Below, piece by piece: positions 6,150 to 59,523 of a stretch of 64,000 nt of DNA; within the stretch, counting starts at the first letter, position 1, and each line of letters begins with the position of its first letter. The stretch lies in the NCBI GenBank assembly GCA_009602725.1, contig WELB01000007.1, positions 1,192,310-1,256,309 on the forward strand, read 5' to 3'. The notes under the pieces are model-generated. The model was not told where the DNA came from and searched no databases. It saw only the letters and a list, made by a program, of their open reading frames with translations. This DNA is from Spirogloea muscicola. Its lineage: Eukaryota. The translations under genes were made by a program, and so were the position numbers.

Positions 6150-8830
6150 TCCGCTAATCTAAGCTTCCTATTTCTGCTGTCGCGGGGGTTCGAGATGCGC
6201 CCTGATTGCCTAGCCAGTGCCTCCACTGATGTACTCGTGAACACCCTCTGTATGCACCGCTGGGTCTTAAGCCGCTCGTTTGTCATGTGCAGCCGCGTTC
6301 TTTACCCCCGCCTCTCCTCACCCCTCGGCGCAACGAGGCCCTCCCGCCCTCCCCCTCGCCCGACGCTGCCGCCCGCGCCTTCCCCTCTCCTCCTCACTTC
6401 CCCACCCAATCTCCCCACCCCCTCCCTTCCTCCAACCCCACTTGTCCTCGCAGTCTTCCACCTCAGCCCCTCCCCCCATGAATGTATCAACACCATATTC
6501 CGCAGCGACTCGCCTGCTCTGCTCTCCTGCCACGCCCCTCACCAGGCCGGCCCAAACCTCTGCGCGCGCAAGGCCCCCTTAACCCTTTTCTTCTCGCGCC
6601 TTCAGCCCTCCTTCCCCCACCGCCTGCACGCCACCGCACTTCTAGCCTCTAGCGCACGCCGCCCGCCGAGCTTGGGCCCCCGCCTCCTCCCGACGGCTCT
6701 CCGCTCTGCCCGCGCCAGTCTCACTTCCGACGCCCACTCCTCTCCCATCTTGCCCATTCCTTCGCGCTGACCTTCGTCAGCCATTCGCCTTTAAAAGCTG
6801 CTGCTTCTGCTATTCGCCATCCGGCGCCTGCCTGCAGCCCGCCTCCCGCGTGACGGGACGGCCGGCGGCTTGGGGGCTGGGGCACGCGGGGCCGCCGGCC
6901 GCATCGGACGGCATGCAGCTGCTGCGCGCCACCGCGCCCGCACATCCCGGCCGTCCGCCGGCCGCGGCCAGGCGCCGGTCCTGTCCGGCGACGTGATCTC
7001 CCGCCCCGGCTGGCCCCACCCGTCCAGCCCACAGCCAGCCGCTTTCAGAGAATTGAGGATAGGGGCTGGACGGGCTTTCGCCCTCTCCTTTCTTCTTTTC
7101 TTCTCCATGCCCACTAAAGGGAGACTACTTTCTCTAATCGGCAGCTGCTCGACAGGCGGGTTTGAGCACCAAGTGGCCACTTGAATCGCTGTGTGCTTTC
7201 ACGCCTTTCTGGCCCCTTCGAACTTCGTTCCTCTTTTTCCTGGGCTGGCAAGTCACACACCATACTGGAAGAGTCTCTCTCCTTGCACTCTCAACCAGCT
7301 CTTGCGCTTCGTGTCGTCCTCCGCGCTCAACTTCACCACGTTCAGCGCAACCTGTCCTTCCTGGCCTCTCAGTTGCTAGTCGTTTGGATCTTCGGCTCCT
7401 CACTCGTACTTACTAAGTGGTTCATCCTACCCCCGTTTTGAAGTAGCAACTTTGGCCCCTTCGTTCTTTGGCCCCTTCGCACCTTGTGAAATTTTTAGGG
7501 CTGGCTTATCACAGCCCTTGCCCCTATTGGGAGAGCCACTTCTTCGCAGTGGCCAGCAGCGAGCTGGCCAGAGCAGGCAGCAGCTCAGGAGACCGGGGCT
7601 GCCGAGACATGTTTAAGCGCAAATGGCGATAGCCGCGTGCGAGCCAGCTGCTAACGTGGACGGCCAGGTGCTGCTCGGCAGGAGCAGGCGCTCCGCCGGG
7701 ACTCAAAGTGGCGGCATCACCAAAAGTCGGAATAGCTCTTCCGAAGTAAGGGATGGCTGTGAGAGGCCAGCCCGATAGTATGAGATCACCACAATGGCGC
7801 CACGAGAGGACGATTCTTGTAGGGGGCGATGCCTGTGGCAATAAAGCGTAAAGAGAGAGTGAGAAGGGCTTCCAAAGGAGGCGATGGCTGTGAAAGAAGC
7901 AGCAGCTCGGTCAGAGGTGGGCCAGGGCTGTGAAAGCAAGCCCACAACGACTGAACGAATTTTAATTGGCCGGGAAGCACTGCTAAGAAAGGCTGCTCAG
8001 TGACCCCTAGTCGGCAGCCGCAAGCAAGTCAAGAAAGTCAGCAAGTCAAGGAAGTCAGCAGCTTGAAAGAAGAAAGCCATTCCAAAGGAGTCGCTCCGCC
8101 TACATCCTCGGGCGGCAGCCAGGGCACAATGACCAGCAGATGCAGGGCATGTGCCAGAGAGAAGCTGCAGGGAAACACGAGGGCCAGAGAGACCGCAGCG
8201 CTGACGACTGCTCGCTCCGCCCGATTTGGCTTCCGTTTCGTTTCATGCGTACCGCACGCCTCCTCCTCTCTTTGCAGACCTTGTTCATTCCTTTTGGGCT
8301 GGCCTCTGACAGCCATTGCCTACATTGGAAGAAAGTGGCTCTTCCAGAGAGAAAAAGAGAGAGACTCTTTCAAGAGAGGGCGATGGCTGTCATTGGCCAA
8401 CCCAGGAGAAAAAAGTGAACAAAGTTCGAAGGGGCCAGAAAGGCGTTTCCGAAAGAAGAAGCGCCTCTCACAAAGGGGGGCAAGGGCTGTGAGAAGCCAG
8501 CCCGAAAAGAATTGACTTCCGAAAGGCCGGCACCAAAAGGAGGGCGAGAGAAGAAGAGAAGTGGCTCTCCTAATGGGGGCAAGGGCTGTGAGAAGCCAAC
8601 CCAAAAAAGAATTGACAAGGTTCGAAGGGGCCAAACTTCGAAGGGGCCAGAGGCGCAAGCTCTTAATTAGGGAACGATGAATCACTCAATAACAACGAGT
8701 GAGGAGCCTCAAATCCGACAGACTAGCTGGCGGAAAAACAATTCCCTGACAAAAGCCAGAGGCAAAAAGGTTTCGTGTATTTGAAACAATCGAAGGCCAA
8801 AACGGCCAAGTACAAAGGCAAGCACATCTG
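6150..8830. mobile_element. Cluster of nested, 5'-truncated RLE/CRE-like retroelement 3' ends in both orientations
   Basis: C-terminal remnants at about 6165-6195 (+, FLLSRGF), 7135-7165 (+), 7374-7416 (+, ASRLDLRLLTRTY*), 7997-8200 (-, SLAHALHL...RLPTRGH*) and 8686-8760 (-, PPASLSDLRLLTRCY*). Many GGCCCCTTCGAAC and GGGCTGGC..CAGCC 3'-UTR motifs are interspersed. Confidence 0.8.
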
Positions 8831-8854
8831 ATGACGTAGCAACTAGCACTTAGC

Positions 8855-9899
8855 AGCTACTGGAGCTGCTAGAGGAGGAGGGATGGGAGGGGGGGAAAAG
8901 GAGGGCCGGAAGGCCGCTGGGGGCTTTATCGACCTGACCTGCGTCCACTTCTGGAGCTGCTAGAGGAAAGGGGCAGCAGCAGGGGCAGGAGGGATGGCAG
9001 GGGGTAGGGGAAGAAGGGCCGGAAGTGTCGATTGGGGCCTTGTCAACATTTCCTGCTGGAGCTGCTAGAGGAGTGGGGCAGCAGCGCGAATTGCTTCAGA
9101 GCCATACACCAAATAGGCTAATAAAGCTCCAAACAGAGCCACATCAGGAGCCGCTCGAGGAGTGGGGCAGCAGCAGTGGCACGAGGGATGGTGGGGGAGG
9201 AAAAGAGGGCCGGAAGTGCCAATGGGGGCCTTGTCGACCTGTCCTGCGTCCGCTTTTGGAGCTGCTAGAGGAGTGGGGCAGCAGCAGTGGCAGGAGGGAC
9301 TGGGGGGGGAAGGAGAAGGGCCGGAAGTGCCGATGAGGGCTTTGTCGACCTGGCCTGCGTCCGCTTCTGGAGCTACTAGAGGAGTGGGAGGCAGCAGCAG
9401 TGGCAGGAAGGATGGCGGAGGTGGGAAGAAGGGCCAAAAGTGCCGATGGGGGCCTTGGAGACCTGCTTCCGCTTTGGGAACTGCTAGAGGAGTGGGATGT
9501 AGCAGCAGTAGCAGGAGGGATGGCCGGGGGGGGAAGGAAGGCTGGGGGTGCCACGGAGCGGAGGGAGCCGTGCCGACGGGGGCCTTGTCGACCCGTCCTG
9601 CGTCTGCTTCTGGAGCTGCTACAGGAGGGGGAGGCAGCAGTTGTGGCAGGAGGAATGATGGGAAGGGGAAGGAGGGCTGGGGGTGCCACAGAGCGAAGGG
9701 AGCCGAGCCAATGGGGGCCTTGTCGACCAGACCTGCGTCCGCTTCTGGAGCTGCTAGAGGAGGGGGAGGCAGCAGCTGTGGCAGGAGGGACGGCGGGGGA
9801 GGGAAGGAGGGGCGGGAGGGCTGGGGCATTGGGGGCTGGGCCGAAGGGGCAGGACCTGCCGCCGCGAATGCCATGGAGCCAAGGGGAGCCGTGCCGACG
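8855..9899. repeat. G-rich minisatellite, about 9 diverged units of roughly 90-140 bp
   Basis: Recurrent core CTGGAGCTGCTAGAGGAGTGGGGCAGCAGCAGTGGCAGGAGGGATGG...GGGCCGGAAGTGCCRATGGGGGCCTTGTCGACC...CTGCGTCCGCTT starting near 8860, 8951, 9056, 9146, 9256, 9367, 9474, 9610 and 9745; ends at the N at 9900. Confidence 0.92.
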
Positions 9900-9900
9900 N

Positions 9901-10460
9901 TACTGGCTCGACACTGCGCCCGAGAGCCGGACCTGCAACCGGGCAGCGGCGCCAGAGCCCGTCAGCCGCGGCGGCGGCGTAGCAGAAGCTGCGGGGGCGG
10001 CAGCGAGCGTCGTGGCGGCACCGGACGGCCCGGACCTTGCCGCCGGGGAGGCCGCCGTTGGCGTTGATGGCGACGGGCGGGCAGCCGGTGCCGAGGCAGC
10101 ACTCGATGTCGACGCCGAGCTGCCGCAGGCCGTCCACGAGGTCGGCGATGGGCCGCTCCCGCATGCGCGGCACGCCGTCGAGCACGTACCTGCAGCAGTT
10201 GACCGATCAATTGATCACACAATACCCATACTATAATACTATAACCATAACTGTAACACCTATATATATAACCTACAGCAATAAGGATAACTCTATATAT
10301 AAACTCATTCCCATTAACCCTGTAACCAAGTCCTCTGACCACCACCCAAGGACCATCAGACTCTGCCTAAACGACCAGAATGTGGGCTTACGGTGGCGGC
10401 GGCAGACCTGCCGTCGCCGCCGGCGGCGGCGACGGCGGCGGCGCGAGCGGCGGGCGCGGG
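9901..10460 (-). pseudogene. EPSPS: Fragment of EPSP synthase (3-phosphoshikimate 1-carboxyvinyltransferase) with two introns
   Basis: Degenerate exon end (RP)L-AAAVAAAGGDGR|gt at about 10455-10408. Intact 154-nt exon 10189-10036: [51 protein letters not shown]. Next exon start 9932-9901: [11 protein letters not shown], cut by the N. Upstream exons are replaced by a retroelement remnant. Confidence 0.9.
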
Positions 10461-10489
10461 CGGCCGAACGGTTGGAAGCGGGGGGAGGC

Positions 10490-10815
10490 CCAGTCTCGCG
10501 CCGCTCGCCGCGCCAGCAGCGAGAGCCCGTGGCCAGCACGCAGGTGCAAAGCGTGGGCCGTGGACCGCTGAAGGGAATACGGCTAGTCGCATGCGATAGA
10601 GGAAGAGGGGCTCGCCCATAGAGGATAGGGGCTGGAAAAGGCCAGCCCAAAAAAGAAATGAGCAAAGTGCGAGAAGACAGCTGTCGCACCCCTAGTGCTT
10701 CCCCTGGCCCCTTCTCGCAGTGTGTTCAATCTCAGTGTGTCTCTCAGTGTGTTCGTTCTTTTTTGGGCTGGCCTAATCCAGCCCCTATCCTCTCTGGGCG
10801 AGCCCCTACTTCTCT
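10490..10815. mobile_element. CRE-like retroelement remnants immediately upstream of the GolS-like gene
   Basis: Minus strand YRMRLAV/SLQRSTAHALHLRAG (about 10600-10500). Minus 3' end at 10600-10675. Plus 3' end GGGCTGGCCTAATCCAGCCCCTATCCTCTCTGGGCGAGCCC (10764-10805), about 40 nt before the ATG at 10848. Confidence 0.75.
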
Positions 10816-11138
10816 CAAGGAGTGCGCGCCGCCCGCCGAGCTCCGCCATGGCGACCCGGTGCGGCGCCGCCAGGCAGCTGCCCGGCGCCCGGCACTGCTG
10901 CTGCCCAGGCGCCGGCAGCTCCGCGGCCCCGCACTGCGAGCTGCCGCGGGCTCCGGGGGCTCGCAGCACTTCTGGTCCGCGCCCTCCAGCGCTGCTGGGA
11001 GCCTGCGCTCTTCTGTTTGCATCCAGGCACGGCCGCTGCGCCATGCCGGGCTGGGCGTTGGGGCTGTGTGAAGCCACGGTCGCGGCGCCCACCCATGGTG
11101 TCCTGCTCCCTTCTGCTCTCTGAGCATGCTGGGCACCC

Positions 11139-22834: not shown

Positions 22835-23389
22835 TACACAAGCATCGACCACTCAGGGGACAGAACCCTGCCTTGATGCCCCTGAAGTCATCCTGGTTGA
22901 GCAGAGCTTCACGACCAGCGGGCTCAGAATTCCAGGTCGGCGTGCAAGCGCTCCCTCTGGGAGTACTATGACTGGCCGGCACAGAGTGGGCAATCAGCAG
23001 CAGCGAGCTGGCGCCCGGCAGCACGGCGAGCTGTCCCACGCTCCCGGCGACGAGCGCGCTACAGGGGTACCGGGCAGCTGAAGCGGGCCCGGAAGACGTT
23101 GCCCCCGGCGGGCGCGCCCGAGGGGAAGATAAATGAAAGTAGGTCATACTTTTCGAAAGAAAGGATATATATGAGTAGAGTTGAGGGCTGTGAAAGACCA
23201 GCCCGAAAGCGAGCTCTTCCAAAGGGGGGCAGGGGCTGTAAAAACTGATGAAGGGCTGGCCCATTGAGGATGGGCGAGCCCTTGTAAAAAGCCAGCCCAG
23301 AAAGAGTGCACAAAGTTCAAAGGGCCGACAGGCGCTAAAATAGACAGCACTTCCGCATTGACAGCAGTGACTGTGACAGGCCTGCCCAA

Positions 23390-24013
23390 AGGCGGACCGG
23401 CACACACGACCTGCTCCGGAACGCGATGTTCGGCATATTTGTCGAAGCCGGTTACACTGTGGCGCTGGAGAACTCCAGCATCATGCCTCTGACTGCTGGG
23501 GCGGACGGCCGCCTCCACACCCGGCGCGCCGATCTCGTCGCTAGCGCGCTCGGCGGGGGGCCTCGGCTCATTGCCGACGTCGTCACAACGGACTCCTTGG
23601 ATTCCAGGAGCGCAACACGCTCGGCGGAGGAGGCGGGCTACGCCGTCTGCCAAGCGGCCGCCGCAAAGGAGTGCAAGTACTCAGATCACCCGGTAGGCGA
23701 CGAGTTCATCCCACTCGCCGTCGACGTACACGGCGCCTTTGACGCCAAATGGCTGGACCTCCTTCACCGCCTTGCGCGGCGAGCAGCGGCCCGCCGCGAC
23801 GGGCAGCAGGGCGAGCAGCCTGGCTTCTATGTCGCCGGGTCCCTCGCCCAAGTTTACCGGATGCGCCTGGCCGTATCTTTGCAGCGGTCCCTAGCTTTTG
23901 CGGTCCACTTGCGCGCAGGCCGCGCTCTGGCGGCGGCCTCCGGCTTCCGTCAGGGCGACGTCTTTCCGCCTGCTAGCTACTCAGACTTGCATCTACTGAC
24001 GCGAGGTTACTGA
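23390..24013 (+). mobile_element. 5'-truncated non-LTR retrotransposon: restriction-like endonuclease (PD-(D/E)xK) C-terminus
   Basis: THDLLRNAM...HTRRADLV...RLIADVVTTD...AKECKY...FIPLAVDVHGAF...YRMRLAVSLQR...SDLHLLTRGY*; clearly homologous to 37880-38495. Confidence 0.88.
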
Positions 24014-24519
24014 GAGTTCGCTTACTGCTGTCTCAGTCCTTAGCACTCCGACTCCTTCAGACCTTGTCCATTCTTTTAGGCTGGCCTCTCCCAGCCACTT
24101 GTTAATCTGGCCGCGCTTGCCTCAAGGAAATGGACAAGGTCTGAGAAGAAGTGGCTCTCCCAATGGGGGCGAGGGCTGTGACAAGCAGAAGGAAGTGCTC
24201 GCCCAGAGAGAAGAGGAGCTGATAAGCCAGCCCGCACGTAGAATTGACGAGGTTCGAAGGGGCCAAAATACGAAGAGAGGGCCGGCAGGCGCAAAAAGCA
24301 GGATACTAGTCTCTTGTCACTAAAACCACAAAGCTAAGCAAGAGACTACAGCGTAAAGGCTTAGTAACCCCGGGTCAGCAGCCGCAAGTCTGACTAACTT
24401 GCAGCTGGAAAAGGAGGAAGTGAGCTTCTGCAAAGCTGATGATAGATGGCCCGCTGTAGGAGAGAAAGAAACAGCTCGTCCACTATAAGGCAGTGGCTGG
24501 GATAGGCCAGAGAAAGACT

Positions 24520-25069
24520 CTTCCAGCACCGTACGGTCGTGGAAGTGAACAATATCATGTCTATCACCACGGATGCCCAGGGACGACATCGCCGCACACT
24601 TGACATTTTGGGCGCGCAACCTGGTGGAGGACCACGGGCCTTGGTTGATGTCGTTGTTATGGAGGCTTATAGAGGTCCAGCATCGACGCACATCGCTGGC
24701 CATGCAGTGGGCAGTGCAGGACAAAGAAAGCTGCAGCACTACTTCGATTACCCCCACTGCGATCAGCTCCTGCCAGCTGCAGTCGACATATTTGGCTGTT
24801 TAGGTCCTCGTTTCCACACTCTCCTTCAGAATATTGCCGATCTAGGCTATGCATGACGTGCATATGTGTTTCCGGATGAGATGGGCTTGCCAGCTGCATA
24901 TCCATCGTTCTTGTGACGACGAGTTTTGGCCTGTTTGCAGCGTGCCCAGGCTAATGCTTTGCACCAGAAAGCTGGGCGAGCTCTAGTTGGTGGCAGAAGG
25001 GCTACGTATCTGCCATCTAATATTCAGGCATCGATTAGCAACCTTTATGTATTGACCCGTGGTTACTGA
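24520..25069 (+). mobile_element. Diverged, stop-containing RLE C-terminus of a second retroelement subfamily
   Basis: HRRTLDIL...GPRALVDVVV...RKLQHY...LLPAAVDIFGCLG...ACLQRAQANALHQKAGRAL...NLYVLTRGY* with internal stop codons. Confidence 0.8.
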
Positions 25070-26093
25070 GCGGGTCAATCTGCCGTAGTCCACGTCTTTA
25101 GATGTGCTTGCCTTCGTACTTGGCCATTTGGCCTTCGTTTGTTTAAATACACGAAAATCTTCTTCCAGCAGAGGGAGACGGCTGTGATTGGCCAGCCCAG
25201 AAACAAAGAATATATAAAGTTCGAGAGGGGCCAGGATATGCGATAGAGTACACGGCGACTAAAGTGGCCACTGGATGCTCAATATCCTCTGTTGAGCAGC
25301 CGCAGTCCAGCTAAACTAGTAGCGGGTAGCGGGTCCACAAAAGGGGGCGAGGGCTGTGTGATGGAAGTCGTTGCCAATTGTCGCCTCGTGGCCCGGGAAG
25401 CGCTGACGTCGTCCTGAGCTGCCGGGTGGCACTGGGCGCCACTTGGGGCGAGCCGGCGCCTCACGGCGGACGACGTCCAGCGGCGGGGCTACGGGGCGAG
25501 GCTGCTTCCTCGTCTTCCGTTCGATCCAGACGAGGGAGTCATTGGGGCGGAGCGGCGCGCACGTCCACGACAGAGCCGCTGTTGCGCTGGCCTCCGGCGC
25601 CCCCCCGGCTCCCGGCTCCGCCGCCGCTGTCCATGCCAGTGCCGCAGCGGCGCTGACCCCAAGTCACCAGTCAGTCGCTCCCTCCCCGCCCGCCGCGCCA
25701 CTCCTTACCACGGCACGCGCCGCGGATCGCCCCCGGGCTCCGCTTCTCGGCGCGATCGCTTTGCCCGGCGCCCCCAGCTGTGTCACTGAGGCTCCTTCAG
25801 TGGCTCCCTTCTCGTCTGGAGCTACGGTGGAGCGGCATTGCGGCACTGCACTGCAACGAGGCAGAGTTTCCGTGGGCACACCTCCAGCATCCTCCTGGGA
25901 CCGTCCTTCTGAGAGGCGCTCATGCGGGAGTCAAGTGACATGAGCACAGGCGGCCAGTAGCGAGCATGTCGTCTGGATGCTCCCTCCTCTGCGGCTCCTC
26001 GGAACGGCCAGCTGCAGGCCGGGCTCAGGCGCAGGGCTTGCAATGAGTGGCTGGCGGACCATCCAGACGCGGCCAGAATAGGGTGACTGTCCG

Positions 26094-35000: not shown

Positions 35001-35532
35001 GTTTTGGCTCGTATACGGCTCTAGTGCTCGCAGCAACACAGCTGAGTCAGTAATCTGTAATTGCTGTCTTTCAGTGCAATATATGCCTATCACCAGGCAC
35101 TGTAATCTTATTTTTCTTGTTGCTCTTGACCAATTTGCACGGTGTCTGGCATTAGGGTATGAGCAAGGAGGCCTTCACAACAGCAGAGGGAATATTCCAA
35201 GCCGGCTGGTGCGATCATGGGTGAGCTTCCCTTGTGGTTCTTCAGTTTGTCTGCGGAGATGACAGTCCAGTATGAAGAGGGATAGTGTGGTAAACCCTTC
35301 TGATTGTCTTGACATAAAGATCAGGGTCATCTAGTTCTTCTGAGCGTATGGTGGGCTTTGCCATTCACACAGGTACTGGTTTCAAACTCCAGAGGCGTGG
35401 ACAACAACAGGCCGATTCCGCTCCCTAACGTACATGCGGCCACTAGCCATTTGGGCCATGCAGTGGGCATTAAGCCCTCCACCACGAATAGCCTTGGCCG
35501 CCTCAAAGTCCTCGCAGAGTCTCTTGGTATAA
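26094..35532 (+). CDS. GBA2: Non-lysosomal glucosylceramidase (GH116), multi-exon
   Basis: [55 protein letters not shown]...[106 protein letters not shown]...[18 protein letters not shown]; stop TAA 35530-35532. Confidence 0.93.
30668..30693. repeat. (GGAT)n microsatellite in a GBA2 intron
   Basis: About 6 tandem GGAT units. Confidence 0.85.
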
Positions 35533-36439
35533 CGTGCTCGCTGGGTAGCCAGTACACCAATTGTCGTTGCACATGACACAGAAGTTATTATTGTCTGTCA
35601 CAACGTTGTACGCTGTCAACTTGCCTCTGAGCAGGACAGCAGCTTGACTATGGAGCCTTCAGTATGTGCTCAGCTATTATTGCAAGAAGTCACCAGAGCT
35701 TCATGGCATCTTCAGAGGACACTGCACACCTGGACATGCGCTACACTAAACATTTATATACATTGCACCTTGGCAATGCTGCTCTGCCACTTTTACCTTC
35801 AAAATGTGTAGATACAGAACATTTGATAAATTATCAGCCATAGGCCATTCAAAGAGCTGGGCTGCTGCGTCCAGGGCACTATGTTTGACAGCAATTTGAC
35901 TAGAGGTGCAAACCTGCACATATTTTATATTTCATGTAGCGGTCACAAGTTACCCCTCTTTATTGATATATCCTTGATATTACTGCTGTTGTCCTTTATA
36001 GAGATACTTGTCGATTGAAACAGAACCTAACCAGTCAGATACTATTGCTGTGTTAAGCAGCCAATTGCACTTCCTTGAAACAGCCCAGAAAGCCGTGGCG
36101 CCCTATGACTCTGGGTGTGACTGCAGAGGCCTGACATTACTCAGATGCACACCAGCACTAAAAATGCCTGGGATAGTAGCCTTATCAGAAGTCTAGCAAG
36201 GTCGCTCATTTCACAGGGTCGCGGCTACTGCCATTCGTAATGGCCAGCTCTAGCCCTCAGTCCAGTTGCGATGTCAGCCTATTGCAGAGTATGAGCTGGA
36301 GGAGGGCGAGTCAGTGCTGCCTGAGGCTCCTTACATCTGACTGGTAGTCGCCTTGTTGGGACTTAGCATGCAGCTCCTCCTTGTCACGCTCTCTTGCAGA
36401 AGAAGCAGCTCTTCCATGATGGGGCGAGGGCTGTGAAAA

Positions 36440-38625
36440 CGGCGCGGGGCTGCGGAGTGGGGGCGAGGCCGTGGTCCACGGGGTCCGTGCAACCTTGGAC
36501 CAACACCCGGGGTGGCTGGTACTGGCCGTCGACGTAAAACATGCATTCAACACCGTGGAGCGCGCCGGCGCCTGCGTTGCGGAGGAGCTCCCGGCCGCCT
36601 TCCCCTCTCTGGTATCCTTTTTCCGCTTGGTGTACGGTCAGCCCAGCGACCTCCTCTGGACAGGGGGTGACCAAGTGGAGGTCCTGCATGCCCAAGCGGG
36701 CACGCGGCAAGGGGACCCCCTCGCCGGCTTCTTCATTGCGCTCGCTCACCTCCGGGCTCTGCAGGCTACCGTGGCGGCACATCCAGGGGTTTTTACGGCC
36801 CACCTTCGCTGACGACACCACCATGGTCGGCCCTCCGAGATACGTGGCGGCGGCCTTCGTCACCTTCGAGCGGCAGCTGGCCACCCTCGGCCTGTCCACC
36901 CGGGCGTCGAAGTGCGCGGCTTGGTCCCCCTGCGGCCTCCCATCCAGCCTGGCGCTGTCCCCCGGATGCCTGACTCCTGCAGTCGGCTTCACCCTCCTGG
37001 GGGTCCCCATCGGTGCGCCGTCCTTCGTGGAGGGGCAGCTGCGAGCCTGCCTCGAGGAACACCTCCAGCCTGCGGCCCGGCTGCCCAAGCTGCAGGATAT
37101 GCAGCTGGCTCTGGCCATGTTGACCAAGGCCATTGTGTAGAGACCCCAGTATCTGACGCGGGCCACCCCGCCGTCCCCAGGGGCGCTGGCGGCGTACGCG
37201 GGTTTTGACGCAGGCATGGTGACGAGCCTGGCGGCCCTGGTTCGCCACCAGGGCTTCCCCCAGTCGCCTGCCGCTCTTCATCAGGCGACGCTATCCCTCA
37301 CTTACGGCGGTTGCGGCTTGCGCCCGCTCGTCCGTTCCTGACGGGCGGCGTACCTCGGCAGCTGGGTGCAGACAGCCGCCTCCGTGGCCCAGCGCTTCTT
37401 GGGCCACGGCCGGCGTGCGCTGGAGCAGGCGGTGGTGGAGGTAAAAACGGGTCTGCTGCCTTTCCAGGCGTCGTTAGGCTCCGCCCACCAGGAGCTGCTC
37501 GCGGCGCACCCGGACCTGGCGGGCCAGGCGGTCTCCTTTGCGCACCTCGCGCACACCGCGGACCTGCGCGTCCAAGCGCGCTTCGCAGCCGCGATGGACA
37601 AGGCCGCCTTCACCACCGCCTTGCTGCAGCTCTCGGAGGCGGACCTGCGCGGGCGTGCGAGACTCTACTCGGCCTCTTCCCCGGGGGCAGCGGCGTGGCT
37701 CCAGGCCCTCCCCCTCAACGACGCTCTCACTCTCCCGGACGACGTATTCCGCAGTGCCGTCCTCCGGCTCCTGGGCCTGCCGCCGCCATGCCTCCAGGGT
37801 GTGCGTCAGTGCGAATGTGGCGAGCGAGGGGCCGAGCCTGGGGAGCTGGCCGCTCATGTTCTGTGCTGTTCCCACGGCGGAGAGCGGACAGTGGCCCACG
37901 ACTGCCTCCGGGATGCGATGCATGGCATCCTGGTGGAGGCTGGCTTCTCGGTGGCAGCGGAGAACTCCGCCGTCATGCCGCTCCAGCAAAGGGCCAACGG
38001 TCTCCATGCACGTCGTGTAGACCTTGTGGCCACCCCACAAGCCGGAGGGCCACGTCTTATCCTGGATGTGGTGACCACAGACGCATACGACCGCTCACAC
38101 CTTGCCCAATGTGCCATCAAGGTTGGGTATGTGGTCGCCTGCGCCGCTCGAGCTAAGGAGCTCAAATATGCTGATCATCCGCGGGGAGACGAGTTCTTCC
38201 CGCTGGCCATCGACACGCATGGGGCGTTGGGCGCTCGGTGGCTCGAGCTGCTCAACCAGCTGGCCCGCCACGCCATCGTCCGCCGCTTCCATGGGGAGCC
38301 AGTAGACTTTCCTGCAGCCGGGTCGCTAGTGCAGGTGTACCGGACGCGCTTGGCCGTCTCGCTGCAGAGGTCTATGGCCCGCGCGCTGCTCCTGTGTGCC
38401 GGCAGAGCCCTCGCTGCTGCCTCTGGCTCTGGGCAGGGGACCCACTTCCAGAAGCCTAGCTTCTCTGACCTGAGGCTGCTTAGCAGGGTTTACTGCGTAA
38501 TACGTAGCTGCTTTGTTTCTTGTTGTGCTTGTTTTCCTTAGCGCTTCCCCTGGGCCCCTTCTCGTACTTTGTTCCTTCTTAATGAGCTGGCTTTTCCAGG
38601 TATCCTCAATGGGCGAGCCCTTTCT
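36440..38625 (+). mobile_element. 5'-truncated RLE-type (CRE/Zepp-like) non-LTR retrotransposon, RT + CCHC knuckle + RLE, disrupted; 8-bp TSD TGTGAAAA
   Basis: RT motifs GGEAVVH, AVDVKHAFNTVER, GTRQGDPLAG, FADD, LLGVPIG, LSLTYGGCGL; then AAAWL, CECG..HVLCC, HDCLR, RRVDL..LDV..KELKY..FFPLAIDTHG. Frameshift near 36795, TAG at 37138-37140, second frameshift near 37320-37345. TSD at 36432-36439 and 38626-38633. Confidence 0.92.
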
Positions 38626-38992
38626 TGTGAAAAGCCAGCCCAACCGTGGAATAACCGACGTGGATGCCTTTGGGCTGGCCTCTTCCAGCCACCAGTTAAT
38701 CTGGCCGCGCTTGCTCTTTGGATGCAGAGTGAGTCGTGCTTCAGTCGGCTCCTAAAGAAGCAGCTCTCCTGTGAAAGAGTACAAGAAATGAACAGTGCTT
38801 CGCTTCGGGCGCCCAGCCGCACAGAGCCCCGGGTTTAAGTAGAGCCGGGGGGCGGGCAGACCATGGGGAAAGGGCACCTCCAAGGGGTAATCTAAGCGGC
38901 TGTTGGCTTACATGCACACCGCGCGGCCCAGCAGCACAGCCCGAAGCCCTTGCAAGCCGCGGCGAGAGGGTCAAAGCCCCGGCGCCGGCGCC

Positions 38993-42359
<3,367 letters not shown>

Positions 42360-44298: not shown

Positions 44299-44330
<32 letters not shown>

Positions 44331-44798
44331 CGCGTGCTGACTGCCACGCGCGGAGGCGCCTGGCGGCAGGCAGGCAGGGCTGCCGCCAAAAGAGCCAGGC
44401 CTGGCTGTCAGAGAGGGACAATGAACGAGGGCCACGGAGAAGGCGAGAGCCGTCAGGGGGCCCCCAATCCGGTGACGTGGCGGGGCCGGCCAGCCCTCCG
44501 GAAAAAGTTACGGGCACTCCCGCCCGCCCGGTGCAGCCTGGGGATGCGGGACGCTGGGGACCCCGGGCCCCGGCCCCGCCCGCAGCGCGCCCGGCTCGCC
44601 AGCTCCACCCCGTCGTTCCCTTCTTACTTGGCCCCCCCAGGCCCTCCATCACTCTCAACACCCCTCCATCCCTTTTCCCACGTCAATGGGCTTGCCCTCG
44701 TACTCGGCCACTCAGGCCCTCCATCACCCAATTCCACCCTCCCACTCTTCGTTCCCACCGTCTTGCTCATGTACCTCGCAGCTCTGGCCCGCCGCCCA

Positions 44799-47700
44799 TC
44801 ACTGAACACTCGCCGCTGCCGCTGCCCGAGCCTGCGCCTGCGCCTGCTCGTTGAGCTCCAGGCAGCGCAGCAGCACGCCCAGCGCCACGCCCGCGGCCGC
44901 CCCCGCCTCCTCCGCCTCCTCCGCCGCGGCCGCCGCCAGCGCCTGCCGCAGCGGCAGCAGCCACTCCCGCCTCGACCTCTCCAGCTGTGCCCCGCTGCGG
45001 ATGCCTGTCCGGTTGCTCCCTGCTGCGAATGCACACGCCGCCACGCGACGCGTCTCACCAGGAGCTGCTGGCCAACGAGGCTCTGGTGCTAGCACAGCTT
45101 GTGGACGATACACTGTTGAGCTTAGACCTTCGCGAGCAACATGTATTTGTATATGTGCAGCTGCCTATGTTGTGCGACCTCCTTCTCCAACTTAGCAGCA
45201 CCTCGAGTATAAGAGTAGGAGCAGAGCTCAGATGTGCAAGTCAAGTGGGAGGAAAGGGTCTCACCGGCGCTCTCTCGCAGCAGGAGGAACCTGTACAAGT
45301 TGAGCGCAGCCATCACCTGCATGAAAGGACAGCGCATCGATTTTTGTGCCAATATTCATGTCAGATCCTGCGCTAGAGGCTGTCTATCAAAGGTGGACCA
45401 TTTCTGTGTCGAGAGATCGCAGCAATGGCTACCAGCAATTTTGAATTGTACATTTTAACTGATCTACTTTGATGCACGAATGCACTCAGGCAGCGGTGCA
45501 CGACGAGAATCCAGATATACGTACTGAGTCACATTCTGCCGTCAGGTCCAGGGGTCGTCCAGAAGGAGGGCAAAGCACATGCTTAATCAGTGCGAGGATG
45601 TCTACGGTAGCAAATGGAGAAGAGACGTTTTGTTTGTCTTGTCCTTCAGAACCTGTGAATGTTGCTCCTTGGCCAAGGGCAGCCACGCTGTCTGACTGCT
45701 CCTCCCTTGACGAAGTGTCGGGCGTGTTGGGCATCATGCTGGTCCAAGGCACCAACAACCGTACTTGCAGACACTTGTCCGCCTCTTCTTTTGCAAACCT
45801 CAGCAACAGCGACACCTGCCAGTGGAATTAACAGAATTCAACTCCCATGAAAGTGGACGACAGTCATTCTAAAGGAGGAGCACAATACCCTAGTTGTCCT
45901 AGTCATGTAAGTATGCACAAGAAAAGTGTGCCTCCTGCATTTAGTAACAGTCTCCACATGTCTGACACTCACCATCAAAGGGTGAGGCGCTTGTACTATG
46001 AGGCTCCTGACAGCTGTGAAACGCTCCTCAGAAGTGTACATGACAAGAAGGACCTGTATTGAAAAGATAATGGGACCGAGATGAAAAAGAGTGTAAGCGA
46101 AGCTCGCAAAGCTTTGGCAAATATAGTAGTGCCCAGGCCAGCTGTGGTGCTTAATAAGGTGAGGTACCTGTTGCAGAACTTCGAAGCAGCGCTTGGCCAG
46201 CGCAGCACTCGAGGACAATACCATCCGGAGCTGGAGAACCTGCAGAAGACACACAGCACAGCGGTACACAACCACAAGCCAGACTAGCTGAGAGAATTAC
46301 ACAGGGATAGAGACACTTTACCAAAGTGCAGCAATAACTGCACTGCTTCCATGACACATTGCATGATATTGTGAAGGCTCAGCCCAGTAGCGACATCACA
46401 GCAACGACAATGATCAAGTTGAAGCACTCGGGCAAGAAGGAGAATCAAACCTGCAGGGTATCTGTCAGCTTCTCGGGGAAGTGCTGTTGCATCTCCTCTG
46501 CAGATTGTAAGCCATGACGGCTGTGAATTACTGAGATGGCTGCTTCCATCAGATCTGCTGCATGCAGTGCATCCTCCTGGCTCTGTCGAAGCATGACGGC
46601 TGCAAGCACAATGACATCCTCTGCTTGCTCTCTAGATAATTCCAGCAGATTGCCCTCCTTCACCAGCCACTGAAGTACTGACTGTTTGTCCACCATGTCT
46701 TCATCACTTTCTGCTTGGTCCGCTTGACCAACTTCGTTGCCCTCTGTGCTGGTTGAGTAATTAGTGCAGGCCACAATCTCCTCATTGTGGCAGATGATCC
46801 AGTACGCTGCATCTCACTCAAACAGGCAGTCCAATAAGATTAACAATCATGCAAGGCCTATGCTGAAGAGCTTTCACTTGCAAAATACACCCATCAAGAA
46901 CCTATCATATTGCACGCACCCCCTACATCAGTCATCCAGCACTACGACGGCAACGATATATGGAGTAAACTCCAGGTAGTGCATGTTGTCATCTGATGCA
47001 GAGTCTGTCAATCATATAAGAAGGCTCTTTGACATTCACCAGCCAAGCCTGCCCCTAAGGTGATATCCATGCATAACTTAGCCTGCAAATCCAGCTGCTC
47101 ATCTTCGTCTTCCTCGTGTGCACTGGGTCTGTGAGGAACGAGCAGCTCTGGTCTGAGCAAGTCCTTGAGGCTGACTTTACATTGGCAGAGGGTGCTCAGC
47201 AGGGATAAATTTACATCAGTCCCAGTGGCTGCTCGACTGAGATTAGGCATGAAGGAAGTCACACGCGAGAGCGCCTGCGAAAGTGGGAAGCACACAGGTC
47301 TTTTCCTCAAGAGAAGCAGAAAACAAGCAATAACATGCTACCTGGCTATATGAAACCCGTGAAGCTGTAAGGAATAAAGGTCACACAAGCATGCAGGCAG
47401 TACTGCACTGTACCAGAAGCTGGAGTGCGAACAAGACAATCTCTTGCCTAAGCTCTTTGTGGCCTGGTCCATCCTGGTAAAGAGCCACAGTCAAAGTGAA
47501 GTGTCATATTTCTCACTCAGATGTATCAGTCTTCATCATGACTCACCAGGGATGCTGCCTTATGCAGAAGTAGGCTTCAGATTGCCCTTACAAGCAGGAA
47601 GGCAGCTACCTTGGACAGCTTGAGTTGCTTGCGATACCTGTGCAGTTTGTAGTATACAGCACACTGCTTGACACAAATGTACAGCCGCTGGTGCCATCTG

Positions 47701-49759: not shown

Positions 49760-49903
49760 AGGAAGCGGCTGCTGATATTAAAAGAGCGGCTGTGAAAGCC
49801 AGCCAGATGCATACAGGTGTTCATGACGGAGCCACAGGCTAGACAGCCAGGGCGCTCTTAGTAACCCCGTGTCAGCAGTAGGAAGTCAGATGAGCTGAGG
49901 GGA
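49760..49903 (-). mobile_element. CRE-like retroelement 3' end upstream of ALF4
   Basis: SSDFLLLTRGY* (stop at 49858) followed by a 3' UTR homologous to 6195-6300, 55915-56025 and 59110-59200. Confidence 0.8.
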
Positions 49904-49904
49904 N

Positions 49905-52874
49905 CGCCTGCCCCGCGGCCTTCTCCACCGGCGCCCAGCTGCGGCTGCACAAGTCCCAGTCCCACCACCCGAGCGCCCTCTCCTCCGCGGGCCACTGCCG
50001 CGGCGACGCCGCCGACGCCTCCGCCGCCGCCGACAGCTCCTGCCTGCCGGCGTTCCTGCAGCCCTGGGGCTCGACAGGTCCGGCCTATGCAGGTCCATGC
50101 CCTCTGCGTGCCGTCCAGTGCCACGACGCTACCGCGGCGACCGACGACGGCACTGCAGTGCAGTGGCAGTGCTGTCTGTCAGTGGCAGCTCAAGCGCTGC
50201 CTCGAGCGCGGCGCCGCTGAACGTCAGCTATCACGCCATTGCTGTCCAGGCAATGCGGATGCCGAGGAGGACGGGCCGCGCTACGCCGGCCAGTTCCCGC
50301 CCGGCTCGCCGGCGCCCTCGGGGGCGCTGGCCGACGAGGCCAAGAGCCCGAGGTTCTGGGGCCGCCTGGACCTCCCCTCTGCGGACGAGGAGGCAGGGCT
50401 TCTGGACCATCGGCCGGCTGACGGCGCCGTCGCCGCCCCACCTGAGCAGCGGATGACGAGCAGGGGCTCGCTCGGGGAGAGCCCCAGCTCCGACTCCTTC
50501 TCGTCCAGCTCGTCCAGCAAGCTTCACCACTGGACGTCCGGGTGAGTGAGTGCTGCAGCTGCTTGGGCTGTGCCAGCATCTGCCCAAGCAAGTGCTGCCC
50601 TGTTGATGTGCATATCTGCTCTGACAGGCGCTATTGAGTCCATTGATGCTCCTGTGTAAATGACAGTCTTCATTATGACTTTCTCCCAGTGATACCGCCA
50701 CACACTCCTTACTTCTCAGCATGTGCAAGCTTGCCGACATACTCACCACTGCCAGCTCTGGCCAGCATGCCGCGTCTGCTGAAGCCCTGTTCCTGTTTTG
50801 TGCTGGCACAGCGAGCTGACGCTGAGAGAGGAGGAGCTTCGTGACGTGCTCTTACGGTATGTCAAACAGCGGTGCTGCTGGGACCCAAGGCCGGCCAGGA
50901 CTTGGAGCTTCCGCAGGGTCGACGACTTTTGTGCATACACGGGCACGCTGGAGAGCTTTGTAGAGACGAGGAAAGTTGTGCAGGAGAGGGAGCCGTACAC
51001 AGGGGCCCCTGTGGACGGCGAGGCGCAAGGCGCCATTCCAGGCCCCTGGGATGTCTCCGTTGTTGGGCTAGCACCAGAGTTGTTTCAGACCGGAGAAGCT
51101 CGCCTCAGGCTTCCTCACTCTGAGTCTGTAGTACGCTGTCCAGGTTGGTTTTCACTCCAACTCTGCACCCACATTGTGGTCCTTGTGCTGGAGCTCATCA
51201 CCCTGCAAATGACCATATGCTATTTGCAACCTTTTCACGTGGCTTCACTGTGAGGCTTCTTTTACAAAGAGACATGCCAAATTGCAAGTCTGCACTCACA
51301 TTGTTTGACGAGTTGTAAGCACTGGCAGATGCCTCTCATCAGCAAACAATCATGTAAATAGCACTGGAGCCCTTCTTAGGTAATGTAGGTAACGAGATTT
51401 GACATGCCGACTATGACTGGATGCCACAGGGGCCTTGACAGAGGCCTGTCCTTATTGTCATGCAGAGTGCATCGGGAAGGGCGAGCTGCCCTGCAGCAAC
51501 TGCTTCACGGCAGACGGAATGAAGAAGTGTATTCACTGTGAGGGTACAGGGAGGACACTCTCGCATAGCGACGCCTCCGCACTAGAGAGGTGCTTTAGGT
51601 CCTCCGAGCGTCCCTTGAAGGAGAAGGCCTTGTAGCATTTGCCTAGGTGTAGCAGCAATCAAGATATCGATATTAAGTTCCTTGCCTTTCCCTGTGTCTT
51701 CTAGATTTGGCTCCAGACTATCACCACACCTTATGAGTGTCTCATGAGGCCTATCAGCATGGACAGCAACTGCATCTCTTAAAGTGCCCAACTGAAATGT
51801 CCTCAGTGAAGCATTCCTTGCAGAGTGTGGGCGTTTTTCAATCTTGGATGCCAGCACTGCAGTGGCAGTGGCATGGTGCTCTGTGCAAAGTGCAAGTCGC
51901 GGAAGAAAGTGCGATGCCCTCCCTGTCGGGGACTAGGGTCAGTCATCACTCGAAGGGTGCTCATTGTGTCCTGGTAAGCACGCATGTTTGCACCTTCTTC
52001 CTGCCTTGCGCACAAGAAGGACACTAGATGCATTACTTTGGTGGTGCAGAGCACTTTGCCAGCTTAGTCAGAAGGTCTCGATCCTCCATTCGGCCCGGAC
52101 CTTTCAGTATACATAGCTTTGGCAGTGAAGACCATTCTTCTGAAAATGAGCCACTCTGAGTCCAGCCTGTGAATGATGCGCCTGACTCTGTCGGCTTATT
52201 TTCACAGGACCAATTTGTCACGGACTCGAGTGAGCAACCCTGCCAAGGGCGTGAAAGTGCCCGAATGGGTGGTGAAGCATGCCAGAGGCACGGAGCTCGT
52301 CAAGATGCAGGCCCTCCCTTGTGCCCCCGCCCTTTTCCCAGGGAGCAGTCGACTCTCCAACTTGTCTGCCAAGGTAGCATCCATCTCACTGGCAAACCTG
52401 GTAACAATTGTGTTACCAATTGTGGTGGATGCTGCTCTGAGCAGCCGCTCAGCTACCCTATGTCTTTTTTGGCAAGTGGCAGATGCTGTTGCCTCAACTT
52501 ATATTACCCAGCTAATCGGTCTCAGAATCTGGATATATTGCAGGAGAGGCTGTGAAGTCAAACCTTAGAGTAAGTTGTTGATGTCCATATGCATGTTCCT
52601 TCTCTGTTTCGGTACCACACGTCTTTACCCTTTGTCTGTGGCCTTGCCTCAGGTACTGGCTGAGAGGCCAGCAATACCAAAGGGTGCCCGGTTGCTGTGC
52701 GAGCGTCACATTCTCAGGGCGGTGCCCATCACCAGGGCAGTCATGCAGAGCAACCACACGTCCTTCCCATTCTACCTCCTTGGACTCGACCGTAGAATCT
52801 ATGCAGAGGACTACCCTGTGAAATGCAGTGTTGCATGGTGCTGCTGTTACGGTCAGATCTGCTGGCCATCATGA
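49905..52874 (+). CDS. SSUH2: SSUH2-like protein, copy 2 (first codons lost in the N join)
   Basis: Same exons and peptides as 153-3158; ends CCCYGQICWPS*. Confidence 0.85.
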
Positions 52875-53027
52875 CTGCAGAGGCAGGAGCGCTGGTTGTT
52901 TCTCAGAGTCTGCCCTTTTCATCCCCTTGTTCTTGTCTGGTTCTTGGAAACACTTGCAGACTTGGTTGATGTAAGAGGGCTGTAGCACCGAGTTGTGTCC
53001 TGTTCGTGACCTGTGGTCTACTAGCAG

Positions 53028-55617: not shown

Positions 55618-55874
55618 GGCGAGCTGGGCCAGCCAGGGCCGGCGGCGCTGGCGGCGGCCGGGTGGGCGCGACGGCGGGGCCGGGGGCGCTGGGGAGGCGG
55701 TGGCGGGGCGATCGGGAGGGAAGGTGGGGCTGGGGGTGCATCGGGGCGCCCCGCCCCGCCCCGGTGACAGCGACCAGCCGCCGGTTCGGGCAGCTCCTCG
55801 GCGTGCGCGCCTGAGACGAGATGGCGGCCGGCCGTCTGCCCTCCCCTCGCCTTCGCCCTCCAGCTCCTCTCAGC

Positions 55875-57313
55875 TCAGCTGACTTGCCATTGCTGCTGAC
55901 AAGGGGGTCCCGAAGTGCGCCCTCTTTGCCTAGCCCGTGGCTCCAGTGATGTACTTATGAACACCCTCTGTATGCACCCGGCTGGCTCCTGCAGCCGCTC
56001 TTTTTGATCTGAGCAGCCGCGTTCCTCTCCCCCCGCCTCTCTGCCACCCTCGGCGCCACGAGGCCCTCCCGCCCTCCCCCTCGTCGCCGCCACCCCGGGC
56101 CGCCTCTCTAACCTCCTCTCCCCTTACTTCCCACCAGAAGAAAGACGCTGCCAGGAGAGGGCAGTGGCTGTGAGAGGTCAGCCCAGACAAGAATGAACGA
56201 AGTTCGAAGGGGCCAGACAAGAGGCTCCCACCTCTCTGCACCCAGCACCCCCCCCCACGCGCCGCCCCCNAGGCCGGCCCAAACATCTGCGCACGCCCCC
56301 CCTCCCCCCCCTTCTGTCCACGCTTCGGCCCTCGTTCCCCCCACCGCCTCCGCAAGCAGCCTCTGCCTTAGTCTCTCTGCTGCGCGCCCCCCCCCGCCGA
56401 GCTTCCCCCCCCGCCTTTTCCGACGGCTCCGCGCTCTGACGGCGCCAGTCCCGCTTCCGACGTCCATTCCTTCGAGCTGGCCTTCGACAGCCATTCGCCT
56501 TCAAGAAATAGCTGCTGCTCCCACCATTGGCCCACCCCGGCGCCTGCCTGCAGCTCCTCCTGCGTGACGGGACGGCCGGCGGCTGGGGCTGGGAGCAGCA
56601 CCCCCCGCCGGCCGCATCGGACGGCATGTAGCCGCTGTGCGCCGCCGCGCCCGCGTATCCCGGCCGTCCGCCGGCCGCGGCCCGGGCCGGTCCTGTCCGG
56701 CGACGTGATCGCGCTCTCCCGCCCCCGCCGGCCCCTCCCGTCCAGCCCACAGCCAGCCACTTTCGCCCTCTCCTTGCTTGCTACCCGGAGATTATTCCCT
56801 GACCTGCGGCTTCTCAACAGGGAAGTTGAGCACCAGTGGCCACTCAAGTCGCTGTGTGCTTGAGCGCTGTTCTGGCTCCTTCGAACTTCGTTACTGAGCT
56901 GGCATATCACAGCCATCGCCCCTTCAGTGGAGGAGTCTTTCTCCTGGCACTCTCAAACAGCCGTTGCGCTTCCTGTCTTCCTCCGCGCTCCGCTTCACAA
57001 CGTCCGATGCAACTGTCCTTCGTGGCCTCTCAGTGGCCAGAAGCGAGCTGGCCAGAGCAGGCAGCAGCTCCGGAGACCGGGGCTGCCTAGACAACTTCAA
57101 GCGCATATGGCGATGGCCGTGCGCGAGCCAGCTGGGAACGTGGACGCGCGGCTGCTGCTCGACAAGAGCAGGCGTCCCGCCGGGACTCAAAGTGGCGGCA
57201 AGAAGGATAGCTCTTCTGAAGTAAGGCGATGGCTGTGAGAGGCCAGCCCAAAAGAACGGGATCACCACCTTGGCGCCACGCTTGGAGGAGGCGATGCCTG
57301 TGGCAATACAGCT

Positions 57314-57344
<31 letters not shown>

Positions 57345-59200
57345 CCAAAGGAGGCGATGGCTGTGAAAGCAAGCCCACAAAGACTGAACGAATTTGGATG
57401 GGCCGGGAAACACGAATAAGTAGTGGCCGTGAAGCACTCAGGGGGCGAGGGTTGTGCAAAGCCATCCAACGATATAATCAACAATGTTCAGAGGAGTCGG
57501 ACTTTCTTCACCTCGCAGGAGAGCAAGAGACTGCTAAGGAAGGCTGCTTAGTAACCCCTAGTCGCCAGCCGCAAGCAAGTCAAGAAAGTCAGCAGCCGGG
57601 AAGAAGAAAGGCATTTCCAAGGGAGTCGCCCCGCCCATAGCTTCAGGCGGCAGCCAGGGCAGAATGACCAGCAGATGCAGGGCATGTGCCAGGGGGAAGC
57701 TGCAGGGGAACACGAGGGCCTGAGAGACCGTAGCGCTGACGACTGCTGGTAACGCTTGATTTGGCCTCCGCTTCATCTCAGGCGTACTGCACGCCTTTCC
57801 CCTCTCTTTGCAGACCTTGTTCACTCCTTTTGCGCAGGCCTCTTACAGCCATTGTCTACATGGAAGAAAGTGGCTCCTCCATAAGAGAGAGACACTCTTC
57901 CAGAAAGCGATGGCTGTGATCGGGCAGCCCAGGATTAAAGAATGACCAGAGTCCAAAGGGGCCGGGGCAAGAAAGCGCTTCCAATAAGGGGGGCGAGAGG
58001 CTCTCTCTGCGAGGAGCACGCGCCGGCACCAACAACCCGTCGACCAACACGGATGGAATTTGCGGGGCGTGGGCCAAGCACGGGACGCGTGGCGGCAGAG
58101 CAAGTGGGCGCTGCAACGTGGCGATGGGTCGCGCTTCTGGCGTGCATGTGCGCGCCCGTCCGCGCTGTCTCCGCCCCTTTCCATTCTTTCTGGGCTGGCA
58201 TTGCCAGCCCTTCGTCTTTAGAGGCGAGCACTTCCTTCCTGGGCAGCCCTTCCCCCCCATTTTAAAGCCACTTCTTCCCGGCTTCCCAATCCGAGCTGGC
58301 AGCAGGGCGAGCAGCTCGGCTTCAATGTCGCCGGGTCCCTTGCGCAGGTCTTCCGCATGCGGTTGGCCGTCTAGTAGAAAGGGCTCGCCCATTGAGGATA
58401 GGGGCTGGACAAGCCAGCCCAAAAAAGAATGAACAAAGAATGAACAAGTTGGCCGTCTCGCTTCAGCGGTCACTTGCGTCCACTTGCGCGCAGGCAGAGC
58501 TTTGGCGGCGGCCTCCGGCTTCCGTCAGGGTGACATCTTTCCCCCGGCTAGCTACTCCGACTTGCATCTCCTGACTAGAGGTTACTGAGCGTCCTCTGGC
58601 TGATGTCTTCGTCCTAGTCCAAAGGCATGGACTGTAGTGTAGTTCTTTTCCGGCTCCTCTTTCTTTGGCTTGGGATATTGTCCATTCTTTTTGGGCTGGC
58701 TTTGCCAGCCACTCTTCTCTATGGGCGAGCACATTTTTCCTCTGGCCCCCTTCTCGTTCTTTGTTCATTCTTTTTTGGGCTGGCTTTTCAGCCCCTATCC
58801 TCAATGGGCGAGCCCTCCTCCTAAAAAGCTTGGAGCAGCTACAAAGGGGCCTGAAGATGCTATGGCAGAACAGGGGGAGGATGGATCACTCAGTAGTTAC
58901 GAGTGAGGAGCCTCAGATCCGACAGACTAGCTGCCGGAAAGAAGAAAACTATCCACCTGACGAAAGCCGGAGGCCGCAGCGAGAGCACGGCCAGAAAGAG
59001 GAAGACTGTTCCAGTAAGGAGTGTGTACCGAGTGATGGGGGGCCTGAGTGGCCAAGTACAGAGGCAAGCCAACGGGGGCTACTGACACGGGGTTACTAAT
59101 AATAAATAAGAGCGCCTTGCTTGCCTACCCAGTGGCTCCGCTAACATTTGTGAACACCATGCTGCATGCACCGGCCTGGCTCTCACAGCCGCTCGTCAAC
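55875..59200. mobile_element. Nested cluster of CRE-like retroelement 3' remnants between DYAD copy 2 and GolS copy 2
   Basis: C-termini at about 55880-55910 (+), 56800-56830 (+), 57548-57720 (-), 58290-58588 (+, SDLHLLTRGY*), 58890-58990 (-, SDLRLLTRNY*) and 59075-59099 (+, LLTRGY*), with many stem-loop motifs; a (GA)n tract at about 57314-57337. Confidence 0.85.
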
Positions 59201-59523
59201 CACCAGCAGCCCCGCTCCCCCACAAGCGGCGCTGCGGCCGCCCGCCGAGCTCCGCCATGGCGACCCGCGCCGCCGCCAGGCAGCTGCCCGGCGCCCGGCA
59301 CTGCTGCATAGCGGCGCACTGCGAGCTGCCGCGGGCTCCAGCGGCTCGCGGCACTCCTGGTCCGCGCCGTCCAGCGCTGCCGGGAGCCAACGCTCCTCTG
59401 TTTGCATCCAGGCACGGCCGCTGCGCCACGCCGGGCTGGGCCTCAGGGCATTGTGGAGCCTCGATCGCGACGCCCACCCACGGTGGCTTCCCCCCTTGTA
59501 CTCTCTGAGCATGCTGGGCACCC

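Follow-up and report, generated by a model that had tools for sequence, protein, structure and literature searches.

Analysis of a 64,000-nt stretch of DNA (hereafter the window) confirmed a nested insertion at 36440-38625, where a broken, 5′-truncated copy of an RT-RLE non-LTR retrotransposon lay inside the 3′ end of an older member of its group. Our main reading, to which we give a probability of about 0.6, is that the copy belongs to a promoter-seeking RT-RLE LINE with a relaxed nuclease, likely using TPRT, which has a non-exclusive, self-made hot spot in the palindrome GGCTG-N8-CAGCC. The palindrome hot spot is likely real, though weaker and less "self" than the original prediction had proposed, and old copies likely act as preferred, non-exclusive landing sites for new ones. 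The confinement of the copies upstream of genes, which the original prediction had not mentioned, was a stronger pattern than the preference for the hairpin.

Results

Structure and target of the nested insertion

The exact 8-bp TSD TGTGAAAA predicted around the 2.2-kb RT-RLE element was borne out (Table 1). Its two copies were the only + strand occurrences of this 8-mer in the 64-kb window, of which the left one adjoined the point within the RT where the element is truncated and the right one its 3′ tail. An exact 8-mer at both ends would be expected by chance at about 1.5e-5, or at 1.5e-3 when 100 register choices are allowed. Excision of the insert gave GGGC-TGTGAAAA-GCCAGCCC, the reverse complement of the hairpin that was intact in other copies; read on the complement, the restored hairpin was GGGCTG-GCTTTTCA-CAGCCC, followed by the tail. 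The antisense landing in the 3′ hairpin of an older copy was thus confirmed, with the GGCTG-N8-CAGCC palindrome split by the insertion. The uninterrupted target was also present elsewhere, as five contigs of run X5 passed from 36439 directly to GCCAGCCC. An assembly artefact as the source of the TSD was rejected, because the TSD restored a motif that was intact in other contigs and the same register recurred at 23237.

The restored hairpin and its tail were of type B, with local alignment scores of 23-37 against three B ends and 11-12 against two A ends, and the inserted element carried a type-A tail, unlike its type-B target. The claim that the element had hit its "own" 3′ hairpin therefore held for the palindrome of the group, but the end that was hit was that of a sister subfamily (type B) and not that of the inserting type A.

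A contig of run X1 (1,241 nt) joined 35503-35911 (19 gaps and 59 differing letters) to 38719-39004 (differing in 2 letters), with 545 nt between the joined parts compared with 2,807 nt in the window. By hand count, the window spacing would be 555 nt without the 36440-38625 element and its 58-nt neighbour, close to that of the contig, so the sister locus likely lacks the element, as judged from the flanks and spacing of this one contig. The flank 38719-39004 had about one contig's depth in X1, and the left part of the contig resembled the window at only ~85%; to the right of the cluster, a switch of the assembly from one sister locus to another is possible. Runs X1-X3 contained three versions of each of the flanks 35503-35911 and 39347-39600, with 0, 25 and either 59 or 34 differences, as would be expected of a triplicated genome.

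Table 1. Positions of the element, its target, the other insertions discussed and the neighbouring features in the window
Feature	Positions	Strand	Remarks
Target, older type-B 3′ end, distal half	36398..36431	-	3′ arm and tail
Left TSD	36432..36439	.	TGTGAAAA
RT-RLE non-LTR element, 5′-truncated	36440..38625	+	2,186 nt, type-A tail; broken copy
Remaining RT motifs	36440..37000	+	DVKHAFN, GTRQGDPL, FADD; right end approximate; RVT_1 only E 0.05
CCHC knuckle and PD-(D/E)xK restriction-like endonuclease core	37810..38160	+	
Type-A 3′ UTR, pyrimidine tail	38497..38625	+	own hairpin 38584-38600 damaged by 3-nt loss
Right TSD	38626..38633	.	TGTGAAAA
Split target hairpin, 5′ arm	38634..38641	-	
Type-D 3′ fragment, 51 nt	38668..38718	+	own 7-bp TSD (38661, 38719); outside any hairpin
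Decayed type-B-like 3′ end	38743..38802	-	
Likely start codon, arginine methyltransferase gene	38993..38995	+	just downstream of cluster; start inferred; PRMT_C at 41485, E 1.5e-5
Second hairpin insertion	23237..23290	.	register same as 36432; 38 nt between 8-bp TSDs TGTAAAAA
Third hairpin insertion, sense	24179..24227	-	33 nt; TSD 7/8 identical, equal to the 8-nt loop
Fourth hairpin insertion, sense	7886..7936	-	29 nt; 11-bp TSD; site empty in duplicate at 57359
Counter-example, type-A end in RLE coding remnant	58362..58458	-	11-bp TSD; no hairpin
Cluster 1, 12 matches	7208..10822	.	ends just upstream of GT8 gene
Cluster 2, 10 matches	23148..25361	.	between divergent WD40 (-) and GH116 (+)
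Cluster 4, 12 matches	56124..58828	.	duplicate of cluster 1 with different insertions

Identity of the element

One frameshift, near 36795, and two in-frame stops interrupted the reading frame of the element. The features of a non-LTR element were present, including 5′ truncation, a variable TSD, a simple 3′ tail and the absence of an LTR. The Pfam RVT_1 match was weak in the window fragment (Table 1) and reached E 2.4e-4 in the family member P0001 and down to E 1.7e-21 in relatives, with an Atlas value of 0.96 to RVT_1 clusters. No match was obtained for the RLE part in the Pfam search, and the single-sequence PDB search gave 0 matches. A C-terminal profile composed of ten metagenome relatives and one window paralogue matched R2 proteins (E 1.5e-9), and seven R2 structures were the sole matches below E 0.001 for the C-terminal model (pLDDT 81), with a best-stated fold E of 1.6e-6. 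In agreement with the original prediction, profile and fold thus identified the modelled C-terminal domain as a restriction-like endonuclease (RLE).

The closest proteins were EukProt gene models named SM000... (41-89% identity), a prefix which we take to denote Spirogloea muscicola, a zygnematophyte alga. No relative was found in viral contigs by protein search, and a search of metagenome contigs with the type-A tail pattern returned nothing. The summed X1 contig depth was 1.0e5-2.2e6 over the element and 100-700 in the flanks, a measure that is not a copy number and shows only that the family is very abundant. The gene models P0003, P0005 and P0007 consisted of host genes fused to RLE or UTR fragments of the family, and were probably promoter clusters misannotated as exons. 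By resemblance the element may be "CRE-like". The CRE-clade REL motif, in the form given in passages of PMC12857005, failed as a strict pattern in all five proteins tested and was present with relaxed spacing in four of the five, this element among them.

The 3′ palindrome and the subfamilies

The stem GGCTG-N8-CAGCC was common to subfamilies A to E, which differed in the sequence downstream, and the palindrome was the best conserved 3′ motif of the group. Each of the five stem pairs was formed in at least 22 of 24 copies, across subfamilies. The stem changes among these 24 copies were three one-sided G-U and no compensatory change was found in the five pairs, so conservation of sequence and of structure were indistinguishable and the RNA structure of the stem stays putative. 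The z value was below -2 for two of seven single 3′ ends folded, the inserted copy's own hairpin did not form on folding, and the Rfam search of the window gave 0 matches. A 3′ stem-loop is commonly carried by LINEs that need their own 3′ end, according to parts of PMC3472496. The HMM that was built from the 24 window 3′ ends missed subfamily E (49760-49903, 55900-56030, 6170-6300 and 59100-59200), whose stem was the same but whose tail differed.

The coding remnants in other copies and the protein of the insert shared ~60% identity, with 61% in a stretch of 206 aa at 23393 and 60% in one of 25 aa ahead of the B end at 8763. With remnants of this identity and an A end placed into a B-like target at 36432, "self"-targeting applies to the group and not to the subfamily. 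Insert and target differed in subfamily in three of the four palindrome insertions described below, and an insert and target of the same subfamily were not found at this locus; B-into-B joints existed in public contigs, where this was the sole pairing that the analysis could detect.

Insertions into the palindrome in the window

The automatic TSD finder gave 33 motif rows, several of them spurious, and its distance penalty kept the 36432 TSD from first rank; the insertion set was therefore curated by hand. Thirteen two-junction insertions, a small set, were curated, not blind, from these rows and from the alignment of the duplicated region, including 4 in the palindrome, 8 elsewhere and 1 ambiguous hairpin case (58205/58244), and two non-hairpin candidate TSDs near 38755 and 8556 were dropped as uncertain. 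The palindrome thus received 4 of the 12 clear insertions (36432, 23237, 24179 and 7886), and it was hit in both orientations. Three of the eight sites outside the palindrome, and one hairpin site, were empty in the duplicate region.

In the null model, TSDs were placed at random in cluster DNA (6.4 kb, containing 28 palindromes), and 3.8% (strict, inside) or 11.2% (loose, any overlap) were expected in the palindrome. Against this expectation, 4/12 had P 8e-4 (strict) or 0.037 (loose); when the two dropped candidates were added, 4/14 had P 0.0016 (strict) or 0.062 (loose).

The inferred first nick preceded GCC in 4 of the 13 insertions, CG in 3 and CA in 3, a weak consensus. The putative nicks fell at A^GCC on both strands at 36432 and 23237 and at ^CAGCCC on both strands at 24179, and the non-hairpin site at 7041 had GCCCTC after the nick, six bases identical to the 36432 insertion. 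Whichever strand was read, the 38-nt insert at 23245-23282 gave type-A tail sequence, as two 3′ ends or a micro-inversion would, and priming at both nicks could have produced it. Tiny TSD-flanked inserts (27-51 nt) at 7047-7073, 7897-7925, 24187-24219 and 38668-38718 had their start at the hairpin or close to it, which would suggest frequent stops of the RT there.

Joints in public contigs

Contigs of run X1 were compared with the intact B copy 7355-7575. Ten joints on the B copy were listed, of which three ran back from the tail; the loop position 7509 was the strongest of the tail joints (6 contigs), and 7467 and 7499 were found in 2 contigs and 1 contig, respectively. Among the 12 of 19 joint rows listed, 11 started at the tail and 10 of these 11, including one row in which the loop sequence stood between the joined parts, landed at 7504-7509, though each joint shows one junction and template jumps would look alike. 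The loop made up 8 of the 27 positions at which a joint was detectable; on that basis P for 10/11 was 4e-5, or 0.019 if all 7 other rows miss, for copies that may be co-amplified. Antisense joints and joints to other subfamilies are hard to detect on the B stretch. By a strict measure, loop joints were a small minority of tails, with about 11 contigs compared with at least 308 tails running into something else (three places, 6 of 123 rows listed). The consensus behind 139 loose tails contained traces of loop and arm, with only 0.35 agreement. For the A element, 7 of the 12 rows listed (with 274 further rows) were joints from its tail, and these 7 fell at coding and UTR positions and not at the damaged hairpin.

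The predicted excess of insertions over the local abundance of the hairpin was thus seen both in the window (4/12, P 0.001-0.04) and among the X1 joints listed (10/11, P 4e-5 to 0.019). What emerged was a hot spot only; a near-exclusive single target sequence was not found, given the 8/12 TSD insertions elsewhere and the loose tails.

Placement of the copies relative to genes

The HMM gave 37 matches, all of which lay upstream of genes in four clusters that made up 10.9 of the 64 kb; none was found in gene bodies or between convergent gene pairs in the 64-kb window. The cluster that held the 36440-38625 element lay between GH116 and PRMT, and cluster 4 lay upstream of the GT8 duplicate. The host genes GT8 (+), WD40 (-), GH116 (+), PRMT (+) and B-box (-) were matched in a Pfam scan of 144 frames, all from the first 50 kb, and the gene starts were predicted from sequence. 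The CpG o/e was 0.6-1.0 in cluster kilobases compared with mostly 0.2-0.55 in gene bodies. Related fragments missed by the HMM (49760-49903, 44300-44800 and 59100-59200) likewise lay in GC-rich gene-start regions. Some of this clustering could also be due to selection against copies in introns.

A segmental duplicate with ~87% identity was observed between 197-15613 and 49905-64000, and the TE clusters differed between the two, which provided pairs of empty and filled sites. A degenerate purine-rich tandem repeat with units of ~110 nt at 8876-9850 was absent from the duplicate region.

Discussion

In the reading that we favour, the region of insertion would be set by access to GC-rich, CpG-undepleted gene starts, a pattern that was observed directly and for which open chromatin is the putative cause. 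TSDs of 4-11 nt imply staggered nicks, the established geometry of TPRT. A relaxed nuclease would be expected to nick the two strands at points 4-11 nt from each other, in many cases immediately ahead of GCC, CG or CA. Within the palindrome, each strand would present a favoured nick site at a distance of 8 nt from that on the other, and 8-bp TSDs and insertion in either orientation would follow; the preference would cross subfamilies, as with A into B here. A need of the RT for the palindrome on its RNA may be what retains it at the 3′ end of every subfamily, so that each insertion, even one of 60 nt, would add a new hot spot. A bolder version, which we consider doubtful, is that one 3′ motif is read by the RT on RNA and by the complex on DNA, through the same protein surface or RNA-DNA pairing, so that the cis-signal is the target. 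If this were true, an RLE lineage with telomere- and microsatellite-targeting relatives would have switched to a self-seeding target, and hairpin arrays would have been built at thousands of promoters.

The clustering of all HMM matches upstream of genes, together with the 8/12 TSD insertions that missed the hairpin, the short inserts that often begin at or near it and the marginal loose-overlap test, would also be expected if promoter access alone were at work. The element would then enter open gene starts with almost no sequence preference, the hairpin insertions would reflect local crowding, and the tail-to-loop joints would arise when the RT stalls and jumps to a second RNA. This explanation is unlikely, about as much so as the double reading of the motif, because four insertions have both arms and a TSD and were not made by template jumps (one of these sites is empty in the duplicate), two stand at an identical register, and the contig joints coincide with the loop positions where the window TSDs start.

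Guidance by RNA or homology, in which the nick is placed by base pairing of the 3′ RNA with matching DNA in an older copy, or by a domain that binds both the RNA hairpin and the DNA motif, seems slightly less probable still. In its favour, no 3′ motif is better conserved than the hot spot, the sequence of the pyrimidine tail would allow base pairing with the purine-rich loop strand where the insertion is in sense, and PMC3636483 describes a proposed R-loop-type model for the R2 group. The target, however, differs in subfamily from the insert in 3/4 cases, the antisense case gives only ~1 nt of tail pairing, and the non-hairpin site with the same GCCCTC after the nick fits a preference for DNA sequence. 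Cutting of a structure is the least credible of these alternatives and very improbable: the palindrome would extrude at active promoters as a cruciform or single-stranded hairpin and be cut by a resolvase-like RLE. Open four-way junctions are cleaved by the R2 RLE in the results outlined in PMC6895275, and the R2 RLE is said in parts of PMC3636483 to resemble Holliday-junction resolvases; against this, the stem here is only 5-6 bp with a loop of 8 nt, and the putative nicks fall at the loop side rather than at the stem base. The relaxed nuclease with a non-exclusive palindrome hot spot at gene starts thus remains our preferred reading.

The arrangement of an RT followed by a C-terminal CCHC and PD-(D/E)xK nuclease is shared with the CRE group (CRE1/2, SLACS, CZAR, Cnl1, MoTeR and FoTeR), and TSDs are made here as stated for CRE and R4 in passages of PMC3636483. 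The targets of that group, as far as described in portions of PMC3636483 and PMC12857005, are spliced-leader genes or telomere repeats, whereas the element here inserted upstream of ordinary genes and into the palindrome of its own group. Most RLE elements target repeats (rDNA, microsatellites), and transposons are among the non-LTR targets listed in the relevant part of PMC4640811. The distant metagenome RT-RLE relatives (L001-L079) had the same architecture, with 22-32% identity to this protein in the best 25 matches listed, and the hairpin HMM matched 0 of these 79 loci. Of their 16 3′ ends listed, 5 ran into (GA)n and 1 into CCCTAA telomere-like repeats, which are usual RLE targets (L005, L007, L014, L016, L055 and L034). 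In L001, the RT-RLE relative was followed by pieces of itself, one of them inverted (28-85, 1302-1524 and 4409-4842); self-nesting in this lineage is possible.

The nuclease of Zepp is an apurinic-type endonuclease. The parallel drawn with Zepp in the original prediction stood for the nesting into existing copies and is an analogy in behaviour only, since Zepp is an L1-clade LINE and not an RLE element (PMC8226300, in part). Zepp and the Zepp-like L1 LINEs of chlorophytes share with this family nested insertion into existing copies, of which mostly 3′ ends are left (same passages of PMC8226300). Zepp forms one cluster per chromosome, probably centromeric, in the portion of PMC3446292 concerned, in contrast to the four clusters in 64 kb here; kinship to Zepp was rejected on its L1 placement and on the C-terminal RLE of the family here. 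In Alu-into-Alu insertion, as presented in parts of PMC2836564, a single position within the element likewise attracts new copies, so that copies seed targets, but the hot spot there is used by the L1 machinery, next to an A-rich linker and in sense, compared with a GC-rich palindrome and both orientations here. Autoinsertions of plant LTR retrotransposons are found preferentially in 3′ UTRs, in older copies of the family and, to a weak degree, in palindromes; they are integrase-based and not target-primed, and no single register is claimed in the abstract (PMC6911290).

Self-nesting at a hot spot is thus already known for Alu and Zepp, and the RLE case is the new part within the literature searched. 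That search, of listings and abstract openings outside Repbase reports and most subscription journals, found neither an RLE family whose hot spot lies in the family's own 3′ motif nor a study of this RT-RLE family. RLE elements are model site-specific integrators that are being developed into gene-insertion tools, and their known targets are mostly host repeats. A hot spot in the element's own conserved 3′ motif, if true, would show how target choice can shift from a host repeat to the element itself, and its substrate of <20 bp makes the claim easily tested in vitro. Through the positive feedback that such a hot spot sets up, new copies would be kept away from exons, and many promoters of this alga would partly be nested LINE tails.
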